From a phage: 64,000 nt of DNA. The DNA lies in assembly GCA_022897995.1 (NCBI GenBank), contig GCA_022897995.1_4763.1, one strand, 5' to 3'. A program made the position numbers and the translations under genes. This document shows, one piece after another, positions 49,863 to 57,507 of the stretch. The notes below the pieces were generated by a model. The model worked only from the letters and a program-made list of their open reading frames with translations. It did no database searches and was not told the origin of the DNA. Position 1 is the stretch's first letter; each line of letters begins with the position of its first letter.

Positions 49863-50133
49863 CAAGGAAGACCGTCTGATTTATGCGCTGGCGGTTATCC
49901 TTGAAAAAGAATTACCGGATCTTGAGGTAGTTTTTACTGACAGACCAGTAGGCCAACGTTACGGAGGATATGATAGCCTAGTTTATCCATCCTATAGCCT
50001 TGAAATGTGGGTAGAAGATTTTAAAAACTTGGCTGATGCATCTAAACCGCTTTATTTGTGGGATGTTGAGTATAATTGCGATCCCACTTGGCCTGGTATT
50101 AATGTTTATGCGTCTATGACTTTAAAGGTGTGA
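49801..50133 (+). CDS. hypothetical protein (start uncertain)
   Basis: ORF-track ORF overlapping the upstream gene by ~60 nt; no clear RBS; true start may be downstream. Confidence 0.3.
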   Translation: MWRCLLVNQKNQLTTVLRQRNKEDRLIYALAVILEKELPDLEVVFTDRPVGQRYGGYDSLVYPSYSLEMWVEDFKNLADASKPLYLWDVEYNCDPTWPGINVYASMTLKV

Positions 50134-50135
50134 TA

Positions 50136-50294
50136 ATGGTTGAACAAATGTTAACTTCACTGGTAATGGCTTTCTGTATGGTTGTTGTTATGATTGCTGT
50201 GATCCCTAAAGAGAGAATGAATCTGCTTGTCGCTGTCTGTGTGGGCGTTGTTTGTGGATGGTTTGGGATCGCGCTAGAACAAGCTCTGCGTTGA
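50136..50294 (+). CDS. small membrane protein (52 aa)
   Basis: AAGGTG RBS then ATG 50136; hydrophobic MVEQMLTSLVMAFCMVVVMIAV..; below ORF-track cutoff. Confidence 0.4.
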   Translation: MVEQMLTSLVMAFCMVVVMIAVIPKERMNLLVAVCVGVVCGWFGIALEQALR

Positions 50295-50356
50295 TTAACA
50301 AAGCGGGTAGGGGTAATTTACTACCCGCATTAAATTAGCTCACTGGAGGGCTTTCT

Positions 50357-50545
50357 GTGGCGTTTTATCTATGGTTGCTTATAGTATGCTTTGTAATGGG
50401 GTTATGCTTCTATACTGGCGTATTCTGTTTGATCGACTGGATAAACGGTGGATTCTCTAATATCATTTTGCTAGCCGGATCAATCGCCTCGTTTCTGTTG
50501 ATATGGCTTTTTTCTTATTTGTTTGGTGAATGGGGTTTATTATGA
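50357..50545 (+). CDS. small membrane protein (62 aa)
   Basis: GGAGGG RBS 6 nt before GTG 50357; hydrophobic. Confidence 0.45.
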   Translation: MAFYLWLLIVCFVMGLCFYTGVFCLIDWINGGFSNIILLAGSIASFLLIWLFSYLFGEWGLL

Positions 50546-50721
50546 ACAAATATATGTTTTGGGCGACCCTTGCCTATGTTGTGATTGCGGTAGTCTGGGG
50601 ATTCTGTGTTATTGTCGCTTCCCTGATCTGGTGGGAATCGCTTGGCGCGGGTTGTCTGATTAGCGGTGCATCCTCTCTTATCATGGGTGTGATTGTTGGT
50701 TTTCTTATTTGGGAGGATTGA
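50530..50721 (+). CDS. small membrane protein (63 aa; alternative start ATG 50542)
   Basis: Overlaps the upstream gene; two predicted TM helices. Confidence 0.4.
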   Translation: MGFIMNKYMFWATLAYVVIAVVWGFCVIVASLIWWESLGAGCLISGASSLIMGVIVGFLIWED

Positions 50722-50723
50722 CA

Positions 50724-50939
50724 ATGGTTTTCTTCGGTCTTATTATAATGGTGCTTAATGTCATTTGTGGTGTTGCTATGTTAGCTATGGCCTTTACTGT
50801 TCCTATGTCTGTTGACAGCGCCGCATCCGTAGGTGTGTTGGGAATTGTAAACCTGTTTACTGCCATAGCATGTTGGATCACCGGACGCGATGAGGTAATG
50901 TATTACTTTTATAAACGTAAACAGAGAAAAGGAAAATAA
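50724..50939 (+). CDS. small membrane protein (71 aa)
   Basis: GGGAGGA RBS then ATG 50724 (ORF track starts TTG 50709); two TM helices. Confidence 0.5.
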   Translation: MVFFGLIIMVLNVICGVAMLAMAFTVPMSVDSAASVGVLGIVNLFTAIACWITGRDEVMYYFYKRKQRKGK

Positions 50940-50940
50940 T

Positions 50941-51132
50941 ATGAGATTTGCATTTGGTTTTACCGTGATGTTGATTATTGCTCTGAGTATGTGTACCGGA
51001 ATGCTTGTATTTGGTCTTGCAAACGGGTTTAGCATTTATAATAATCAGTGGGTTGATTGGGGAATGGTTGCTGTTAATGCGATCCTGATTGGTGCTAATA
51101 CAAGAACTCTATGCAGGATCACAGGAATCTAA
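50941..51132 (+). CDS. small membrane protein (63 aa)
   Basis: AAAGGAAA RBS then ATG 50941; hydrophobic. Confidence 0.45.
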   Translation: MRFAFGFTVMLIIALSMCTGMLVFGLANGFSIYNNQWVDWGMVAVNAILIGANTRTLCRITGI

Positions 51133-51160
51133 ATATTATCACTCACAAAGGGGGTGAATA

Positions 51161-51550
51161 ATGTTTAAATTATCTCAAAGAAGCAAAGATCGGCTTGTTG
51201 GTGTACATCCAGACCTGGTAAAAGTCGTTCATCGTGCATTAGAACTGACTCCGGTCGATTTTGGTATTACGGAAGGTGTGCGTAGTCTCGCAACGCAAAA
51301 GAAATATGTTGCGGAAGGTAAATCTAAGACTATGAAATCTCGTCATCTTCATGGTTTCGCGGTTGACGTTGTAGCGTATCCGAAAGATAAGGATACATGG
51401 AACATGAAATATTACCGCATGATCGCTGATGCATTTAAACAAGCTGGTCGAGAATTGGGTGTTCCTGTTGAATGGGGCGGGGATTGGACCAGTTTCAAAG
51501 ATGGTCCTCATCTACAATTGCCTCACAGCAAATACCCAGATCCACAATAA
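51161..51550 (+). CDS. peptidase M15 family peptidoglycan hydrolase (L-alanyl-D-glutamate peptidase-like, putative endolysin)
   Basis: 129 aa; zinc-ligand motifs SRHLHGFAVDV and DGPHLQL; N-terminal GVHPDLVKVVHRA..VDFGITEGVRS resembles T5-type endolysins; GGGGG RBS. Confidence 0.65.
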   Translation: MFKLSQRSKDRLVGVHPDLVKVVHRALELTPVDFGITEGVRSLATQKKYVAEGKSKTMKSRHLHGFAVDVVAYPKDKDTWNMKYYRMIADAFKQAGRELGVPVEWGGDWTSFKDGPHLQLPHSKYPDPQ

Positions 51551-51611
51551 TTATTAACCATCAACGGGGAGACAATCTAAGGATCTCTCCCCGTTCACTG
51601 GAGACTTGACA

Positions 51612-52097
51612 ATGAATATTGATGTAAAATTAGAAAGTAAAGATTTGATTTATGCTGCGTGTGTTTCTGCCGTAGATGGCATCATAGAACGCCGTAAGCG
51701 ACGCAATTTTGCTGATGACCTAGATTCCATCGTCTCAATCAATTTAGGCCGTCAGACAGGGCATACAGACGCTACAATCAAGTTATATGACCATTATACG
51801 CGAAAAGGCTATAGTGTCTTTATCGTCTCAACGACGCGGGAACATGTCAAAACGATCCGAGATCGCGGTCGCGGTGAAAATGTAAATATTTCAAATGTAG
51901 ATTGCACGTCGATCCGAACTTTCCTGAATCCGATCACATGGCGAGGTCGTAGTCTTGACAGAACAATTTTTATCCTAGATACTACCATGCGCGGATTTAC
52001 TGACAGCGTATTGCAGTTTTTAGAGTTAAATCGACGTAGTGTTGGGGTGGGTAATGTAGAAGACCAACCTATTTTCATTGGCTTAGGTATCAACTAA
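51612..52097 (+). CDS. hypothetical protein (161 aa)
   Basis: GGAGA RBS then ATG 51612 (ORF track starts TTG 51606). Confidence 0.5.
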   Translation: MNIDVKLESKDLIYAACVSAVDGIIERRKRRNFADDLDSIVSINLGRQTGHTDATIKLYDHYTRKGYSVFIVSTTREHVKTIRDRGRGENVNISNVDCTSIRTFLNPITWRGRSLDRTIFILDTTMRGFTDSVLQFLELNRRSVGVGNVEDQPIFIGLGIN

Positions 52098-52232
52098 TGA
52101 AAAATAAAGATAGCGTAGCTCGTCGATTTCGTGCTACAATTAAAAAGAATCGTAAAGTCCAACCTGATAAACTCTATGGTGTTTTGGTTGGAAAAGTTAA
52201 TGACGAACGTCCTGATCTATAAGAGGTGAATT

Positions 52233-52649
52233 ATGGAATTTAAAGCAATTCAAATCATGAAAGGTGAGCATAAAGGTACTATTATCGGTGGATATTTCGC
52301 CCCTATGATTCTGGTATCCGAACCTAAAGCACTGATCGGCGCTAAAGTAATTGTTAGTAAAACTTTCGCAGAAGACCATGTGATCACCGCAGAAGACGTC
52401 GATTCGCTGGCACTGCACACAACTAGCTTCCGTCCTGTTATTGTAGATAATGGTGCTCCTGTTGTCGAGGGAGGCCAGCATTTGAATGTTAACGTATTGT
52501 TACGAGAAATGTTGCTGGACGCGGTTGAACATCCTGAGAAGTACCCGCAGCTTACAATTCGCGTTTCTGGTTACGCAGTGCGCTTCAATAGTCTGACTCC
52601 AGACCAGCAGCGTGACGTTATCGCGCGTACCTTTACCGAATCTCTCTAA
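52233..52649 (+). CDS. grcA: autonomous glycyl radical cofactor (GrcA/YfiD-like; T4 Y06I-like)
   Basis: 138 aa; C-terminal glycyl-radical signature ..[33 protein letters not shown]; AGAGGTG RBS. Confidence 0.75.
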
Positions 52650-52659
52650 TTTTTCATCA

Positions 52660-52688
52660 AGCCAATCCGAAAAGGGTTGGCTTTTTCG
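52660..52688 (+). terminator. intrinsic terminator
   Basis: AGCCAATCC-GAAAA-GGGTTGGCT hairpin plus T5. Confidence 0.65.
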
Positions 52689-52735
52689 TTTTATGATGAT
52701 ATGATGCAATCTCTTAATCAACTGAGGGTTTAATT

Positions 52736-53434
52736 ATGCATACAATGGTTAAAATGGTCTTCGGATCTCACTTATACGGCCTTGATACTGAAAATTCCGA
52801 TAAAGATTATCGAGGTATCTTTGTTCCGACTGCGAAAGAAATTATTTTAGGATCGATGAAAGAACACTATGACCAAAGCACTAGCGGTCAAGGTATCAAG
52901 AACACCAAAGACGATATTGATGTTAATATGTTCAGTCTAAAAAGGTTTATCAATCTGGCATGTAAAGGTGATATTGGCGCTATTGACATGGTGCACGCGC
53001 CTAGTAACATGTTGATTGAATCCTCCAGAGAATGGGAATACATCCGAACACATCGCGATAAATTCTATCATGTTGGTATGTGGGGTTGTTCTGGCTATCT
53101 CAAAAAGCAGGTAGCCAAATCTGAAAAGTATTTCAGTAACTGGAAAGATCTTTCTCATGCTCTGCGTGTTGGTTATCAGCTACTTGAAATCTATCAGACA
53201 GGTGATCTACAATTCCCGCTCGCGCGACGTTCTTCTATTTTAGCGTGTAAGTTAGGAGAAAGAACCTTTGATAATGTGCGGGAAGAATTGAAAGATCTCT
53301 ACGAGCGTGTTAAACTCGCGCGTGAAGAGGCAAAGAAAAACGGTATGCCGGAAGAACCAGATGTTGACTTTTGGAAAGATTTATTAGAATATATTCATCT
53401 GACCGTTGTTCTGGAACACTATACCCGTGGTTAG
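52736..53434 (+). CDS. predicted nucleotidyltransferase (Pol-beta superfamily)
   Basis: 232 aa; N-terminal NTase signature FGSHLYGLDTENSDKDYRG; GAGGG RBS. Confidence 0.55.
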   Translation: MHTMVKMVFGSHLYGLDTENSDKDYRGIFVPTAKEIILGSMKEHYDQSTSGQGIKNTKDDIDVNMFSLKRFINLACKGDIGAIDMVHAPSNMLIESSREWEYIRTHRDKFYHVGMWGCSGYLKKQVAKSEKYFSNWKDLSHALRVGYQLLEIYQTGDLQFPLARRSSILACKLGERTFDNVREELKDLYERVKLAREEAKKNGMPEEPDVDFWKDLLEYIHLTVVLEHYTRG

Positions 53435-53455
53435 TTAATATAGGAGATTAAGAAA

Positions 53456-53650
53456 ATGCAAGTTTATACCAATAGCAATAAAGGCAATGATATCACACCG
53501 GGAAAGATGTATGATTTTACCCCGGCACGAGACGACGAACATCCACCGACTATCGGGTATATTGAAGATGATGCGGGGTTTCGTATTACGATCCTTCTTG
53601 ATGGTGGATGTTCTCATCTTCGCGGTGATCGTTGGGAGTTAGTACCATGA
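53456..53650 (+). CDS. small protein, CSHL-motif paralog 1 (64 aa)
   Basis: AGGAG RBS; motif GYIEDDAGFRITILLDGGCSHLRGDRWELV shared with the next two ORFs. Confidence 0.5.
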   Translation: MQVYTNSNKGNDITPGKMYDFTPARDDEHPPTIGYIEDDAGFRITILLDGGCSHLRGDRWELVP

Positions 53651-53892
53651 TGTATGTGATGACACCTTATAGTAACCGCAAGTATATTACACCAAATGCA
53701 CTGTATGAATATACACCACATGAAAGATTTGCGAATAGTGGTTATATCCGTGATGATAAGGGACACCAGATTTTTATTTGTCTTAAAAATTGTGCACACT
53801 TAGACGGTCGAACATGGACACTGGTCGAAGAACCAAAACAACCTGAGAATAAAGGTCTTTGGAATGTGCTAAAAAAATTCTTGAAAAAGTAG
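53647..53892 (+). CDS. small protein, CSHL-motif paralog 2 (81 aa)
   Basis: ATG 53647 overlapping upstream stop (ATGA); motif GYIRDDKGHQIFICLKNCAHLDGRTWTLV. Confidence 0.5.
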   Translation: MMYVMTPYSNRKYITPNALYEYTPHERFANSGYIRDDKGHQIFICLKNCAHLDGRTWTLVEEPKQPENKGLWNVLKKFLKK

Positions 53893-53921
53893 TTGACAGC
53901 ATGAAACGGGGGTAGTAATAT
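53893..53921 (+). promoter_or_regulatory. sigma70-type early promoter with spacer hairpin (PeSL-like)
   Basis: TTGACA 53893-53898, TAATAT 53916-53921; inverted repeat GGGGGTAGTAATATACCCCC. Confidence 0.6.
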
Positions 53922-53949
53922 ACCCCCATCGAAACAAAGGAGTATTAAA

Positions 53950-54288
53950 ATGAGTGTTAAAGAAGTATTTGTTTATACTGACTATGACAGGTGCGCCTAT
54001 CTCACTGCTGGAAAACTTTACCGTTGTGAGATTATTCATGGTACGCTAGGTCGAATTATGTGCGATCCGATTACAAAATTGTGGAAAAACAATCCTAGTG
54101 AGCGAGAAACTATTATTAACCTAGATTCAGACGGTTGTTCACATTTGGACTATAGAAAATGGCATATCGTGACACATGATGCTTATGGTATTCATCTTGC
54201 TACTAAAGAATTGACTATTGACAAGTTCAAGTTTAAAGAAATCCCGTTTGTATACTGGCTTCGCAATTTGTTTAAGAAAGGAGAATAA
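53950..54288 (+). CDS. CSHL-motif paralog 3 with N-terminal extension (112 aa)
   Basis: AAGGAG RBS; motif ..IINLDSDGCSHLDYRKWHIV. Confidence 0.5.
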   Translation: MSVKEVFVYTDYDRCAYLTAGKLYRCEIIHGTLGRIMCDPITKLWKNNPSERETIINLDSDGCSHLDYRKWHIVTHDAYGIHLATKELTIDKFKFKEIPFVYWLRNLFKKGE

Positions 54289-54289
54289 A

Positions 54290-54712
54290 ATGGAAACAAT
54301 TAATGTACACGTTCGCCGTAGCAAGCTGCGCAGATTCTTCGAAGCTGAAATGCGTAAGACTAACGCACAAATCAAAGAAAAGTGCTTGAATAATGGTTAC
54401 GGTGAGTATATTTTCATTCGCTTTAGTCCGCATATGATCGACCGTCTAACCGACCGCCATATCGATGAACATAAGACAATGGAACTATTCAATAAGGTAG
54501 AAACTCGTTTGCCGGAGATATTCGACTTCCTGAAAATGGAAGACCGACCTAATCGATTAGAAATTACTGACGGTAACATGTGGATCGGGATGACAGTAGA
54601 TCTAATCGAAGACGGTAAACCGTATCACGGTCTATGCTGCCGAATGATTATAGAGAATCCAAAACGACTGGCGGGTAAAATGTCGGCTGTTGTTTTGAAA
54701 GTGGACCAATAA
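54290..54712 (+). CDS. hypothetical protein (140 aa)
   Basis: AGGAGAA RBS then ATG 54290 (ORF track starts 54218). Confidence 0.5.
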   Translation: METINVHVRRSKLRRFFEAEMRKTNAQIKEKCLNNGYGEYIFIRFSPHMIDRLTDRHIDEHKTMELFNKVETRLPEIFDFLKMEDRPNRLEITDGNMWIGMTVDLIEDGKPYHGLCCRMIIENPKRLAGKMSAVVLKVDQ

Positions 54713-54734
54713 TGGAGATTGGTTAAAATAATGC

Positions 54735-54763
54735 TTGACTTTCTGGTGATAGGGCTATATTAT
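54735..54763 (+). promoter_or_regulatory. sigma70-type promoter (possible MotA-box TGCTT at 54732-54736)
   Basis: TTGACT 54735-54740, 17-bp spacer, TATTAT 54758-54763. Confidence 0.5.
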
Positions 54764-54797
54764 GGAATCAGAAAGTTAAGCCAAACAGGAGAAATTA

Positions 54798-55388
54798 ATG
54801 TTAAAAGTTCTAAAAGCGATAGTATTGAGTCTGTCACTAGCCGTTGGTGCTACACACGCATCGACTAGCGCACCGATCAAAAAAGCGCCGATAGACAACT
54901 TTACAGCACACCAACTAGATAATTTACATTTCGCCTATCAATACGGCGAGCAATTCGAGAAAAGCGGTAAGTTGAAAAAGGACCATCCGAATATTCGCTA
55001 TAACGGAAAGGGTTTAGGTCACATCCTGGCGGGTATCGCATGGCAAGAATCAAGCGCGGGTGCAAACTTAGCACCAAAGAAAAATCATCATGCTTATGGA
55101 TTATTTCAAAATTACCTTAAAACGGTGAAAGCGAAAAATGCAAAGCGCGGTGTTAAAATGAGTGATCGCCAGACTATCAACTTTATCATGAATCGCGAGG
55201 TTTCTGCATTCTACGCGATGGATGAGTTAGCATACTGGCTGGATGTTCGAAACGGTAATATCCGACTCGCGCTGGCTTCTTACAATGCTGGATGGAACTA
55301 TAAAGCCGGTTTAGGTTATGCTGATGACGTATTAAAAAAAGCTAACCATCTAAAGAGTAAAGGCATTCTTAAAACTAAACGCTATTGA
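54798..55388 (+). CDS. secreted lytic transglycosylase-like (SLT/lysozyme-like) protein
   Basis: 196 aa; N-terminal signal peptide MLKVLKAIVLSLSLAVGATHA; catalytic-region motif GIAWQESS and ..SYNAGW..; AGGAG RBS. Confidence 0.55.
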   Translation: MLKVLKAIVLSLSLAVGATHASTSAPIKKAPIDNFTAHQLDNLHFAYQYGEQFEKSGKLKKDHPNIRYNGKGLGHILAGIAWQESSAGANLAPKKNHHAYGLFQNYLKTVKAKNAKRGVKMSDRQTINFIMNREVSAFYAMDELAYWLDVRNGNIRLALASYNAGWNYKAGLGYADDVLKKANHLKSKGILKTKRY

Positions 55389-55395
55389 GGAATAT

Positions 55396-55755
55396 ATGAA
55401 AAAGTTGACAATAATTGCTATGATTGCTATGATGTTCTCTGCTGGTGCGCTTGCTAGTAATGAGCGCCCTTATCCAAAGTTCGAATACAAAGGATTTGAG
55501 ATCAACAAAAAGATCATTAAAACCTTCTGTGATGATGATAACATGTGTAGCGATTTTATCGCACTTGAACTCGACGAAGCCTATAAACAAGGCCGAGATG
55601 AAAAACGAAAAAATCGAGCATGGGATCTGAGTATTGCCAGCTTTGCTAAAACAAAACGCAACCTGTGTGATACTGCCCCTGATAAGCAATTATGCTTTGC
55701 TTATCGCGACACACTGTTAAGCCGTTTTATGGCTGGGTTGTCTTCCCGTGACTAA
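55396..55755 (+). CDS. secreted hypothetical protein with signal peptide (119 aa)
   Basis: GAGGAA RBS; signal peptide MKKLTIIAMIAMMFSAGALA; four Cys. Confidence 0.5.
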   Translation: MKKLTIIAMIAMMFSAGALASNERPYPKFEYKGFEINKKIIKTFCDDDNMCSDFIALELDEAYKQGRDEKRKNRAWDLSIASFAKTKRNLCDTAPDKQLCFAYRDTLLSRFMAGLSSRD

Positions 55756-55770
55756 TGAGAGGTTTATATT

Positions 55771-56226
55771 ATGATTATTGATACTGTAAAGGGCGATCTC
55801 ATCGCCCTGTTTAAACAAGGAAACGGTCATTTAATTCATGGTTGTAATTGTTTTCATACTATGGGCGCTGGTATTGCTGCGAAGATCGCGAAAGAGTTCC
55901 CGCAAGCATTGGCTACTGACAAAAAGACACCGAGAGGAACGGCTAGTAAGCTAGGCGAGTTCAATGTTTGGCATCATACCGTTAATGGTTATAACTGGAT
56001 GGGTATTAATCTTTATACGCAATTCCGCCCAGGACCAAATGCTGAATATTCCGCTATCATCCGTGGATTCGAACAACTTAACTTCGCATTTGAAGGTACT
56101 GTTAAGCCGTTCTATATTCCTAAAATTGGTTGTGGGATTGGTGGCCTAGAATGGGAATGCGTAGAAGAAATCATTAATGATTTTACGCCGGATATCAATA
56201 TTGTGGTGGTGGAATATGACAAATAA
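55771..56226 (+). CDS. macro domain protein (ADP-ribose binding/processing)
   Basis: 151 aa; macro-like motifs LIHGCNCFHTMGAGIAAKI and IPKIGCGIGGLEWE; GAGAGG RBS. Confidence 0.55.
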   Translation: MIIDTVKGDLIALFKQGNGHLIHGCNCFHTMGAGIAAKIAKEFPQALATDKKTPRGTASKLGEFNVWHHTVNGYNWMGINLYTQFRPGPNAEYSAIIRGFEQLNFAFEGTVKPFYIPKIGCGIGGLEWECVEEIINDFTPDINIVVVEYDK

Positions 56227-56410
56227 AAATGATCTCTATTCCGGTGATTGGGTGAAACGTCAATCTGTAGAAAACGTAACTTGTTTTCGTTGTTTCACTG
56301 AATACAATATAAAAACCGCTCCTGTTAGTGTTCCAAAGACAGACGGGTATTATATTAAAGAACCGCATTGCCCTAAATGTAAATGTCGATTATATTGGAG
56401 TCATCTATGA
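56216..56410 (+). CDS. zinc-ribbon protein (64 aa)
   Basis: ATG 56216; CxxC..CPKC pairs (CFRCF.., CPKCKC). Confidence 0.45.
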   Translation: MTNKNDLYSGDWVKRQSVENVTCFRCFTEYNIKTAPVSVPKTDGYYIKEPHCPKCKCRLYWSHL

Positions 56411-56625
56411 AGAAGCCTAATACCGCTCACATGAAAGAAAACTGCCGATGTGTTAGATGTGGTTGGCCTATTATCTTCACTTGCTGTAACGACGACATGC
56501 AGCGTTTACCGTGGGGAATGTGGGATTGGTGGATGTATTGTAGCAATAAAGGATGCATCCACCACGAAGGCGAAGGAGTATTTCAGGAAACGCCTGATTG
56601 GGTGGAGGTGATAGAAAATGCTTGA
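56407..56625 (+). CDS. cysteine-rich protein (72 aa)
   Basis: GGAG RBS then ATG 56407; CRCVRCGW..CC..C..C. Confidence 0.45.
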   Translation: MKKPNTAHMKENCRCVRCGWPIIFTCCNDDMQRLPWGMWDWWMYCSNKGCIHHEGEGVFQETPDWVEVIENA

Positions 56626-56911
56626 GACTATCATTAACCTTGTTATGTGGACTTTTAATTTCGTTATTGTTATTGTGGCGGGTATTGAGATTGTCAAGCA
56701 ATATCTGATACAATCCAGAAATAAACATGTTGTAATTGATATGGACTCTCAAGGAAATAAGCTGATCCTGCTAGAAGACGGTCGGGAATATTGGGTAGGT
56801 TATCCAAAGACACTACGCGGATTTATCTTTGCTATGGGTGTTTGCTTCTTTTTCCTTTGTATCTGGGTTTATGTTGGTTTAGGTCTTGCTGGATTTTTGG
56901 AGATTAATTAA
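56618..56911 (+). CDS. small membrane protein (97 aa)
   Basis: GGAGGTG RBS; two hydrophobic segments. Confidence 0.5.
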   Translation: MLETIINLVMWTFNFVIVIVAGIEIVKQYLIQSRNKHVVIDMDSQGNKLILLEDGREYWVGYPKTLRGFIFAMGVCFFFLCIWVYVGLGLAGFLEIN

Positions 56912-57507
56912 TGGCACAACTATACTTCTACTATGCATCTATGAACGCTGGTAAGTCTACTTCCTTATTACAAAGTGCTTATAACTATACAGAACGTGAT
57001 ATGCGAGTATTAATTCTTAAACCAGCGATTGACAATCGAGATTCAGAAAGTGAAGTTGTTTCCCGAATTGGTCTAAGTGCTCCAGCGATCACATTCACTA
57101 AATCGGATGATCTTTTCGATTTGGTTTATCGTGAATCACTAGGTAAGCGTAGACCGGATCGCTGGCGTCCAGATGCTGTATTTGTAGATGAAGCCCAATT
57201 TATGACTAAAGAGCATGTTTTAGGCTTGTGTGCGCTTGTTGATGATGCAAATATCCCTGTACTGTGCTATGGCCTTCGCACCGACTTTCAGGGCAATCTA
57301 TTTGAAGGATCTGCGGCATTAATGGCATTTGCTGATAAACTGGTCGAAATGAAGGGTATTTGTCATTGTGGCAAGAAAGCGACTATGGTCCTTCGCGTAG
57401 ATAAAGATGGTAATGTTATTCGCGATGGTGCTCAAATAGAAGTTGGTGCAGAGGATAAATATGTTTCTGTGTGCCGTAAACATTTTATTGACGGTACTAC
57501 CAACTAA
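56911..57507 (+). CDS. tk: thymidine kinase
   Basis: 198 aa; P-loop SMNAGKSTSLL, ..VFVDEAQF.., zinc-binding CHCGKKAT..VCRKH; matches T4 tk. Confidence 0.9.
   Translation: MAQLYFYYASMNAGKSTSLLQSAYNYTERDMRVLILKPAIDNRDSESEVVSRIGLSAPAITFTKSDDLFDLVYRESLGKRRPDRWRPDAVFVDEAQFMTKEHVLGLCALVDDANIPVLCYGLRTDFQGNLFEGSAALMAFADKLVEMKGICHCGKKATMVLRVDKDGNVIRDGAQIEVGAEDKYVSVCRKHFIDGTTN

Follow-up and report, generated by a model that had tools for sequence, protein, structure and literature searches.

RlaP proteins, which Pfam (PF10127) describes as an "RNA repair pathway DNA polymerase beta family", were named for their genomic association with RNA ligases; it was predicted that they put back missing nucleotides at damaged RNA ends ahead of ligation, and in jumbo phages their distribution is reported to mirror that of RNA ligases (PMC7824862). 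Here, we describe a member of this family encoded by a 64,000-nucleotide (nt) stretch of phage DNA (GenBank assembly GCA_022897995.1, contig GCA_022897995.1_4763.1; hereafter, the window). Its gene is nrdC.11, and we compare its product with the characterised RlaPs and with other nucleotidyltransferases (NTases) of the same fold. As both the gene and the RlaP family have already been known and annotated, our analysis confirms rather than discovers them.

The RlaPs of Pseudomonas fluorescens (PfRlaP) and P. aeruginosa (PaRlaP) append one or two nucleoside monophosphates to the 3'-OH of RNA, with neither DNA nor E. coli proteins serving as substrates and with Mn2+ and Co2+ acting better than Mg2+ (Carruthers, Fatma & Huang, bioRxiv Dec 2025, PMC12776372). 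On a mimic of cleaved tRNA, they favour the broken end in the anticodon loop over the acceptor end, and pre-treatment with RlaP followed by ligation allowed a tRNA missing one nucleotide to regain aminoacylation in part (PMC12776372). Three Asp residues are strictly conserved in the family, and in the crystal structure of PfRlaP an NTase domain at the N terminus is followed by a helical C-terminal domain, with a terminal helix packed onto the NTase domain (PMC12776372). In the same study, NrdC.11 of phage T4 was placed in the RlaP family, in cluster 5 of the sequence similarity network (PMC12776372).

Family membership and active site of NrdC.11

The source of the window is a T4 relative of the RB49 type, a Krischvirus. 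A total of 59 phage records matched positions 52000-54000 in a megablast search, with 90-97% identity, and all of them were Krischvirus (RB49, Phi1, GEC-3S, and others), a genus of T4-like lytic myoviruses infecting E. coli and Shigella. The features of the gene on which the following description relies are as follows:

52736..53434, plus strand: nrdC.11 coding sequence, an RlaP-family (PF10127) Pol-beta NTase by Pfam, PHROGs, the RB49 annotation and hhalign
52724..52728, plus strand: Shine-Dalgarno sequence GAGGG, 7 nt 5' of the nrdC.11 ATG, read from the sequence
52736..53023, plus strand: N-terminal alpha/beta NTase domain, residues 1-96, in the AlphaFold2 (AF2) model (strands 2-9, 23-30, 44-48, 61-67 and 93-96; helices 68-76 and 80-86)
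53027..53431, plus strand: C-terminal all-helical domain, residues 98-232, in the AF2 model (helices within 98-231), ending in the long helix 210-231
52763..52807, plus strand: catalytic motif G10-S11 ... D22-x-D24 (codons 10-24), with the spacing GS-x10-DxD
52913..52921, plus strand: D60-I-D62 within the conserved NTKDDID, from conservation in 67 homologs and the position of AF2 strand 61-67

The open reading frame (ORF) at 52736..53434 is intact, starts with ATG, and encodes 232 amino acids (aa) followed by a stop codon. Its RB49 counterpart is RB49p098, gene nrdC.11, "nucleotidyltransferase" in RefSeq, from which it differs in 19 codons, 17 of them synonymously and 2 non-synonymously; the gene is under purifying selection. 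The protein is encoded at full length and with at least 95% identity by all 59 Krischvirus records. An exhaustive HMMER search of representatives of 50%-identity clusters returned 3564 relatives at E ≤ 1e-3, and tblastn found relatives in 1584 phage records, most of them Straboviridae, where the gene is called nrdC.11, with distant ones in Bacillus and mycobacterial phages. Clearly, given the 3564 relatives, the presence of the protein in every Krischvirus record and the mostly synonymous changes with respect to RB49, 52736-53434 is not a chance ORF.

The NrdC.11 protein matched the RlaP family of Pfam well above threshold (53.1 bits against a gathering cutoff of 23; E = 4.7e-14), in one collinear stretch that aligns residues 7-191 with profile positions 24-198 of 249, and it matched phrog_388, "nucleotidyltransferase", in PHROGs at E = 4.9e-80. 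A profile built from 67 diverse homologs of NrdC.11 aligned over both domains with the 255-aa RlaP of Bacillus tequilensis (hhalign probability 99.8%, E = 4.7e-29), which itself scores 74.6 bits to PF10127. RlaP was the sole significant family in Pfam, with no match to MNT, AbiEii, CD-NTase or PolyA_pol; the protein had no counterpart in NCBIfam, and none of the NTase models of PADLOC matched it at E ≤ 1. We therefore regard it as nearly certain that NrdC.11 is an RlaP-family NTase.

Judged by sequence, T4 nrdC.11 and the Krischvirus gene are orthologs. The 336-aa proteins of T4, other Tequatrovirus phages and other Straboviridae are 41-48% identical to the Krischvirus protein over both halves and share the motifs GSHLYG, NTKDDID and WKALSHALR; like its Krischvirus counterpart, T4 nrdC.11 is an accessory gene of the early region. 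In contrast to the Krischvirus protein, the T4-type proteins carry an insert, and their genes lie between the mobD region and nrdC.10 rather than next to vs.6. The nrdC.10 product of T4-type phages, here RB14 (L002), gives sub-threshold matches to AAA/STAND NTPases. Many NrdC.11 orthologs are misnamed "thioredoxin" in GenBank and UniRef, apparently because of the nrdC-based locus name, and one is labelled "HNH homing endonuclease".

The active site of a Pol-beta NTase, G-[SG], DxD and a third Asp, is present in full. Residues 9-27 read FGSHLYGLDTENSDKDYRG, and among the 67 homologs G10, S11 and D22 are conserved in 100%, D24 and D62 in 99%, D60 in 97% and D84 in 94%. The Bacillus RlaP carries the D60/D62 motif as KNTKDDVDI. 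In the AF2 model, D62 is the first residue of strand 61-67, and it is likely the third metal-binding carboxylate. The helical half is also conserved, at W136, K137, H141, R144, P161, K172 and G174, with K137, R144 and P161 invariant and H141 present in 99% of the homologs. Basic and aromatic residues (K137, H141, R144, K172 and W136) predominate among the conserved positions of this half, and we infer that they fit nucleic-acid binding. A role of the helical domain as a HEPN RNase was considered and rejected, as a conserved Rx4-6H motif is lacking: the Krischvirus protein does contain R107-x4-H112, but position 112 is variable among homologs.

The AF2 model of NrdC.11, computed with an alignment of homologs as input, reached a predicted local distance difference test (pLDDT) score of 96.5 and a predicted template modelling (pTM) score of 0.91. 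The modelled elements follow one another as in the crystal structure of PfRlaP (PMC12776372), the NTase domain coming first, then the helical domain and last the terminal helix. Thus, NrdC.11 resembles the Pseudomonas RlaPs in its Pfam family, its G-S motif, its three Asp residues and the predicted order of its domains, and its 232 aa compare with about 250 aa in bacterial RlaPs, such as the 255-aa Bacillus member. It differs from them in belonging to a distant subfamily, in being encoded by a lytic phage, and in the location of its gene outside an rtcB-rtcA or other ligase operon.

A preliminary description of this locus, made from the sequence alone, had recognised a 232-aa protein with a Gly-Ser and D-x-D NTase signature and a helical C-terminal half. 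The signature is present as it was quoted, its residues G10, S11, D22 and D24, together with D60 and D62, are 97-100% conserved over the 67 homologs, and the AF2 model and Foldseek agree with a Pol-beta NTase carrying a helical half. The architecture was said to be common to antibiotic NTases, minimal NTase toxins and signalling NTases, and the nearest folds, ANT(4'), LinB, AadA, HalB and MNT/HEPN-type modules, bear this out. The fold class was thus read correctly, whereas the specific family (PF10127 RlaP, phrog_388, and orthology to T4 nrdC.11) was missed. Of the roles proposed there, nucleotide modification of macromolecules fits the RNA 3'-OH addition by Pseudomonas RlaPs (PMC12776372), whereas interference with nucleotide-based immunity, or a toxin function, finds no support, as neither PADLOC (no NTase match) nor Pfam (no MNT, AbiEii or CD-NTase match) points to it. 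The family models of defence or signalling NTases and NTase toxins (CD-NTase/SMODS, MNT, AbiEii/MenT) did not recognise the protein.

Proposed nucleotide addition to RNA 3' ends and its possible use

By analogy with the Pseudomonas RlaPs, G10-S11, D22, D24 and D60/D62 would bind a nucleoside triphosphate (NTP) and a divalent metal, probably Mn2+, where the NTase and helical domains form a cleft, and the enzyme would extend the 3'-OH of an RNA by one or two untemplated nucleotides. We assign a probability of roughly 60% to this statement as a whole, that is, to NrdC.11 being an RlaP-family enzyme that adds nucleotides to RNA 3' ends. During infection, such an enzyme could refill nucleotides lost from tRNAs and other RNAs after cleavage by host ribotoxins such as the RloC-type anticodon nucleases, which cut out the wobble base, and functional RNA would then be resealed by the phage polynucleotide kinase/phosphatase (pseT, Pnkp) and RNA ligase 1 (rnlA, Rnl1). 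Refilling of nuclease-damaged tRNA or RNA before sealing by Pnkp and Rnl1 would be the most likely use of the activity; a role directed specifically against ribotoxins, suggested by distant homology, is less probable than the activity itself. T4 Pnkp and Rnl1 were the first RNA repair system described, and RloC-type nucleases have been proposed to defeat repair by this pair through nucleotide excision. The repair idea for NrdC.11 has already been published as a prediction.

The other enzymes of such a pathway are encoded by RB49, which has pseT (127.7-128.6 kb) and rnlA (129.4-130.6 kb). Besides full-length pseT, a separate RB49 gene adjoining nrdB codes for RB49p229 (RB49 132333-132809; L003:18315-18791), a PNKP-type HAD phosphatase domain that stands alone and could be a second RNA 3'-end-healing activity. 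With pseT, rnlA and the extra PNKP-type phosphatase, a complete repair pathway is therefore available.

Untemplated addition to an RNA 3'-OH by a Pol-beta-fold active site is also carried out by CCA-adding enzymes and poly(A) polymerases. The analogy is functional only: these class II NTases have other accessory domains, act on a defined tRNA acceptor end and are sequence-specific. NrdC.11 gave no PolyA_pol match.

Several points weigh against nucleotide addition to RNA by NrdC.11, or against its use in repair. The activity of RlaPs was measured only for PfRlaP and PaRlaP, the tested proteins fall into cluster 1a of the similarity network and the phage clade into a different one, and T4 NrdC.11 is labelled "of unknown function" in the same study (PMC12776372). 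The characterised RlaPs pick nucleotides almost at random (PMC12776372), so that even their repair may not be accurate. T4 stays viable in the laboratory when the block nrdC.11-mobD.3 is deleted (PMC9825161), and any role of nrdC.11 must therefore be conditional. In RB49, pseT and rnlA are located about 75 kb from nrdC.11, which has no adjoining ligase or kinase gene; an RNA ligase neighbourhood (RtcB or a 5'-P ligase), which is a mark of RlaPs by context and does not define them by sequence, was not found, the neighbours being vs.6, regB and small ORFs. Phage members generally lack this linkage: early or nucleotide-metabolism genes, and not those of RNA repair, surround the gene in T4-type, Bacillus and mycobacterial phages. 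In Bacillus phage 0524phi7-1 (L087:3923-4711), for example, it is found three genes after nrdA-nrdB-nrdI-nrdH. Finally, the best solved structural neighbour of NrdC.11, in a set of PDB structures that evidently did not contain PfRlaP, was HalB of the Hailong system, which makes DNA and not RNA.

This neighbour raises the alternative of a primer-independent or protein-primed synthase of oligo- or polynucleotides, whose product would serve as a signal or a decoy, for example by holding the Hailong channel HalA closed. In the Foldseek search of the PDB, HalB matched with a template modelling (TM) score of up to 0.46 and the kanamycin NTase ANT(4') with E = 6.5e-5 and a TM score of about 0.4, followed by LinB, AadA, AAD(9) and Tam41; these matches speak for a resemblance at the level of the fold only. 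Searches of PDB sequences, with the single sequence or with the 67-sequence profile, returned nothing meaningful from that same set. HalB (PDB 9dbh) is 13% identical to NrdC.11 and has no detectable sequence relationship to it, by sequence or profile. It is a bacterial anti-phage defence NTase that is paired with the HalA channel and polymerises deoxyadenosine monophosphate to oligodeoxyadenylate, and a Pfam scan of the ORFs neighbouring nrdC.11 revealed no HalA-like partner. We hold a HalB-like synthase to be highly improbable. We say the same of the broader proposal that the phage clade serves not repair but counter-defence, either as a HalB-like synthase of decoy or inhibitory oligonucleotides or as an RNA-tailing enzyme that disables host RNA; the Krischvirus protein would then be its minimal catalytic core.

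The antibiotic NTases among the fold neighbours bring up another kind of acceptor, namely a protein or a small molecule: NrdC.11 could neutralise a host HEPN toxin by MNT-like AMPylation or modify a metabolite in the manner of ANT enzymes. The resemblance to ANT(4'), LinB, AadA and AAD(9), which act on small molecules, amounts to TM scores of only about 0.4 and 10-12% identity, and neither their family models nor a close fold match linked NrdC.11 to the aminoglycoside and lincosamide NTases. Pfam and PADLOC gave no match to families of this kind, the tested RlaPs did not use E. coli proteins as substrates (PMC12776372), and the mostly basic and aromatic character of the conserved helical-domain residues would suit a nucleic-acid ligand. 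We give this reading the lowest standing of all, marginally below that of a HalB-like synthase.

Genomic neighbourhood of nrdC.11

The preliminary description had placed the gene immediately after a glycyl-radical cofactor gene and had laid emphasis on this neighbour. The position is correct: the ORF at 52233..52649 (138 aa) is the counterpart of RB49 vs.6, matches Gly_radical of Pfam at E = 1.5e-16, and is separated from nrdC.11 by 86 nt. The emphasis was unwarranted, since this gap contains the following elements and the adjacency is absent from T4-type phages:

52659..52693, plus strand: intrinsic-terminator-like hairpin and T-run at the end of the vs.6 unit, found by a scan (hairpin 52659-52683, 10-bp stem with 5 G-C pairs)
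52677..52705, plus strand: candidate sigma-70-like promoter, TTGGCT-17 nt-TATGAT with an upstream TG (extended -10), 9/12 matches in a consensus scan only

The promoter candidate overlaps the terminator hairpin, and the annotation of GEC-3S has a terminator at the same position between vs.6 and nrdC.11. From these signals, nrdC.11 appears to be transcribed separately from vs.6. In a more distant Krischvirus-like contig from a metagenome, vs.6 and nrdC.11 occur in the same order but are separated by the insertion of an HNH/NUMOD4 homing endonuclease gene (L005:3951-4547) precisely between the two. A functional link between nrdC.11 and the glycyl-radical gene was rejected on these grounds. As the terminator and the promoter-like site separate the two genes, and as T4-type phages lack the arrangement, the adjacency is positional and not functional.

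In RB49, the order of genes 3' of nrdC.11 is three small ORFs, regB, vs.1, vs, tk.4 (macro domain) and tk. The corresponding and other nearby features of the window are as follows:

53456-53650, 53632-53892 and 53950-54288, plus strand: three tandem paralogs of 64, 86 and 112 aa, 33-43% identical, with a C-[SA]-H-L...W..V motif and no Pfam match
54290-54712, same orientation as nrdC.11: RegB endoribonuclease (Pfam E = 5.8e-48), about 850 nt downstream of nrdC.11
55771-56226: Tk.4 macro-domain protein (Pfam Macro)
51161-51550: 129-aa ORF, whose counterpart in RB49 is annotated as endolysin

The 64-kb window contains no tRNA gene, and positions 50000-57000 gave no Rfam match.

The regB gene bears on a further possibility, in which the RNA 3'-OH chemistry of the RlaP family is used for a general remodelling of RNA ends. 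Short untemplated tails would be added to host or phage RNAs, for instance to RegB fragments after removal of their 3'-phosphate by Pnkp, and would change RNA decay or translation in host shut-off or in the turnover of phage mRNA. In support of that, regB follows nrdC.11 closely and in the same orientation, nrdC.11 is unlinked to ligase genes, and in total E. coli RNA the Pseudomonas RlaPs labelled rRNA-, tRNA- and fragment-sized species with little NTP specificity (PMC12776372). However, only in Krischvirus is regB close by, T4-type genomes having no such arrangement; GEC-3S has an annotated promoter between nrdC.11 and the regB unit, and the characterised RlaPs prefer the broken anticodon-loop end to the acceptor end (PMC12776372). 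We consider such remodelling unlikely, though clearly less so than a HalB-like synthase or a protein-modifying enzyme, and nucleotide addition for the repair of RNA ends remains our preferred reading.

The insert-less Krischvirus form

Nearly all close relatives of the Krischvirus protein are longer, 303-359 aa, and carry an extra segment of 92-135 aa between its residues 128 and 136. The site of this segment in the window is:

53117..53143, plus strand: insert junction, residues 128-136 (KSEKYFSNW), from two alignments of homologs and the AF2 model of the T4-type protein P0036

Among these relatives, the segment is absent only from the Krischvirus form and from the proteins P0002 (234 aa), P0146, P0153 and P0230; it is also absent from bacterial RlaPs and from the Pfam RlaP model. 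In the AF2 model of the T4-type protein P0036, the insert occupies residues ~133-240 and is predicted to fold as a helix, a five-stranded sheet and a long helix. In a rough and poorly resolved neighbour-joining tree, the short forms are found at three separate positions within the insert-bearing clade, which suggests that the insert was lost repeatedly. The absence and suggested repeated loss of the insert are a small new point of our analysis.

Because it is devoid of the segment carried by nearly all of its close relatives, Krischvirus NrdC.11 is a minimal phage RlaP. As a naturally insert-less protein of 27 kDa with a very-high-confidence model, it could suit biochemistry in this capacity, and it could help to ask what the insert contributes to the T4-type proteins. 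If it is true that NrdC.11 replaces the nucleotide excised by a ribotoxin, the protein would be a third component of the Pnkp/Rnl1 pathway, and its action would represent a counter-counter-defence of the phage.
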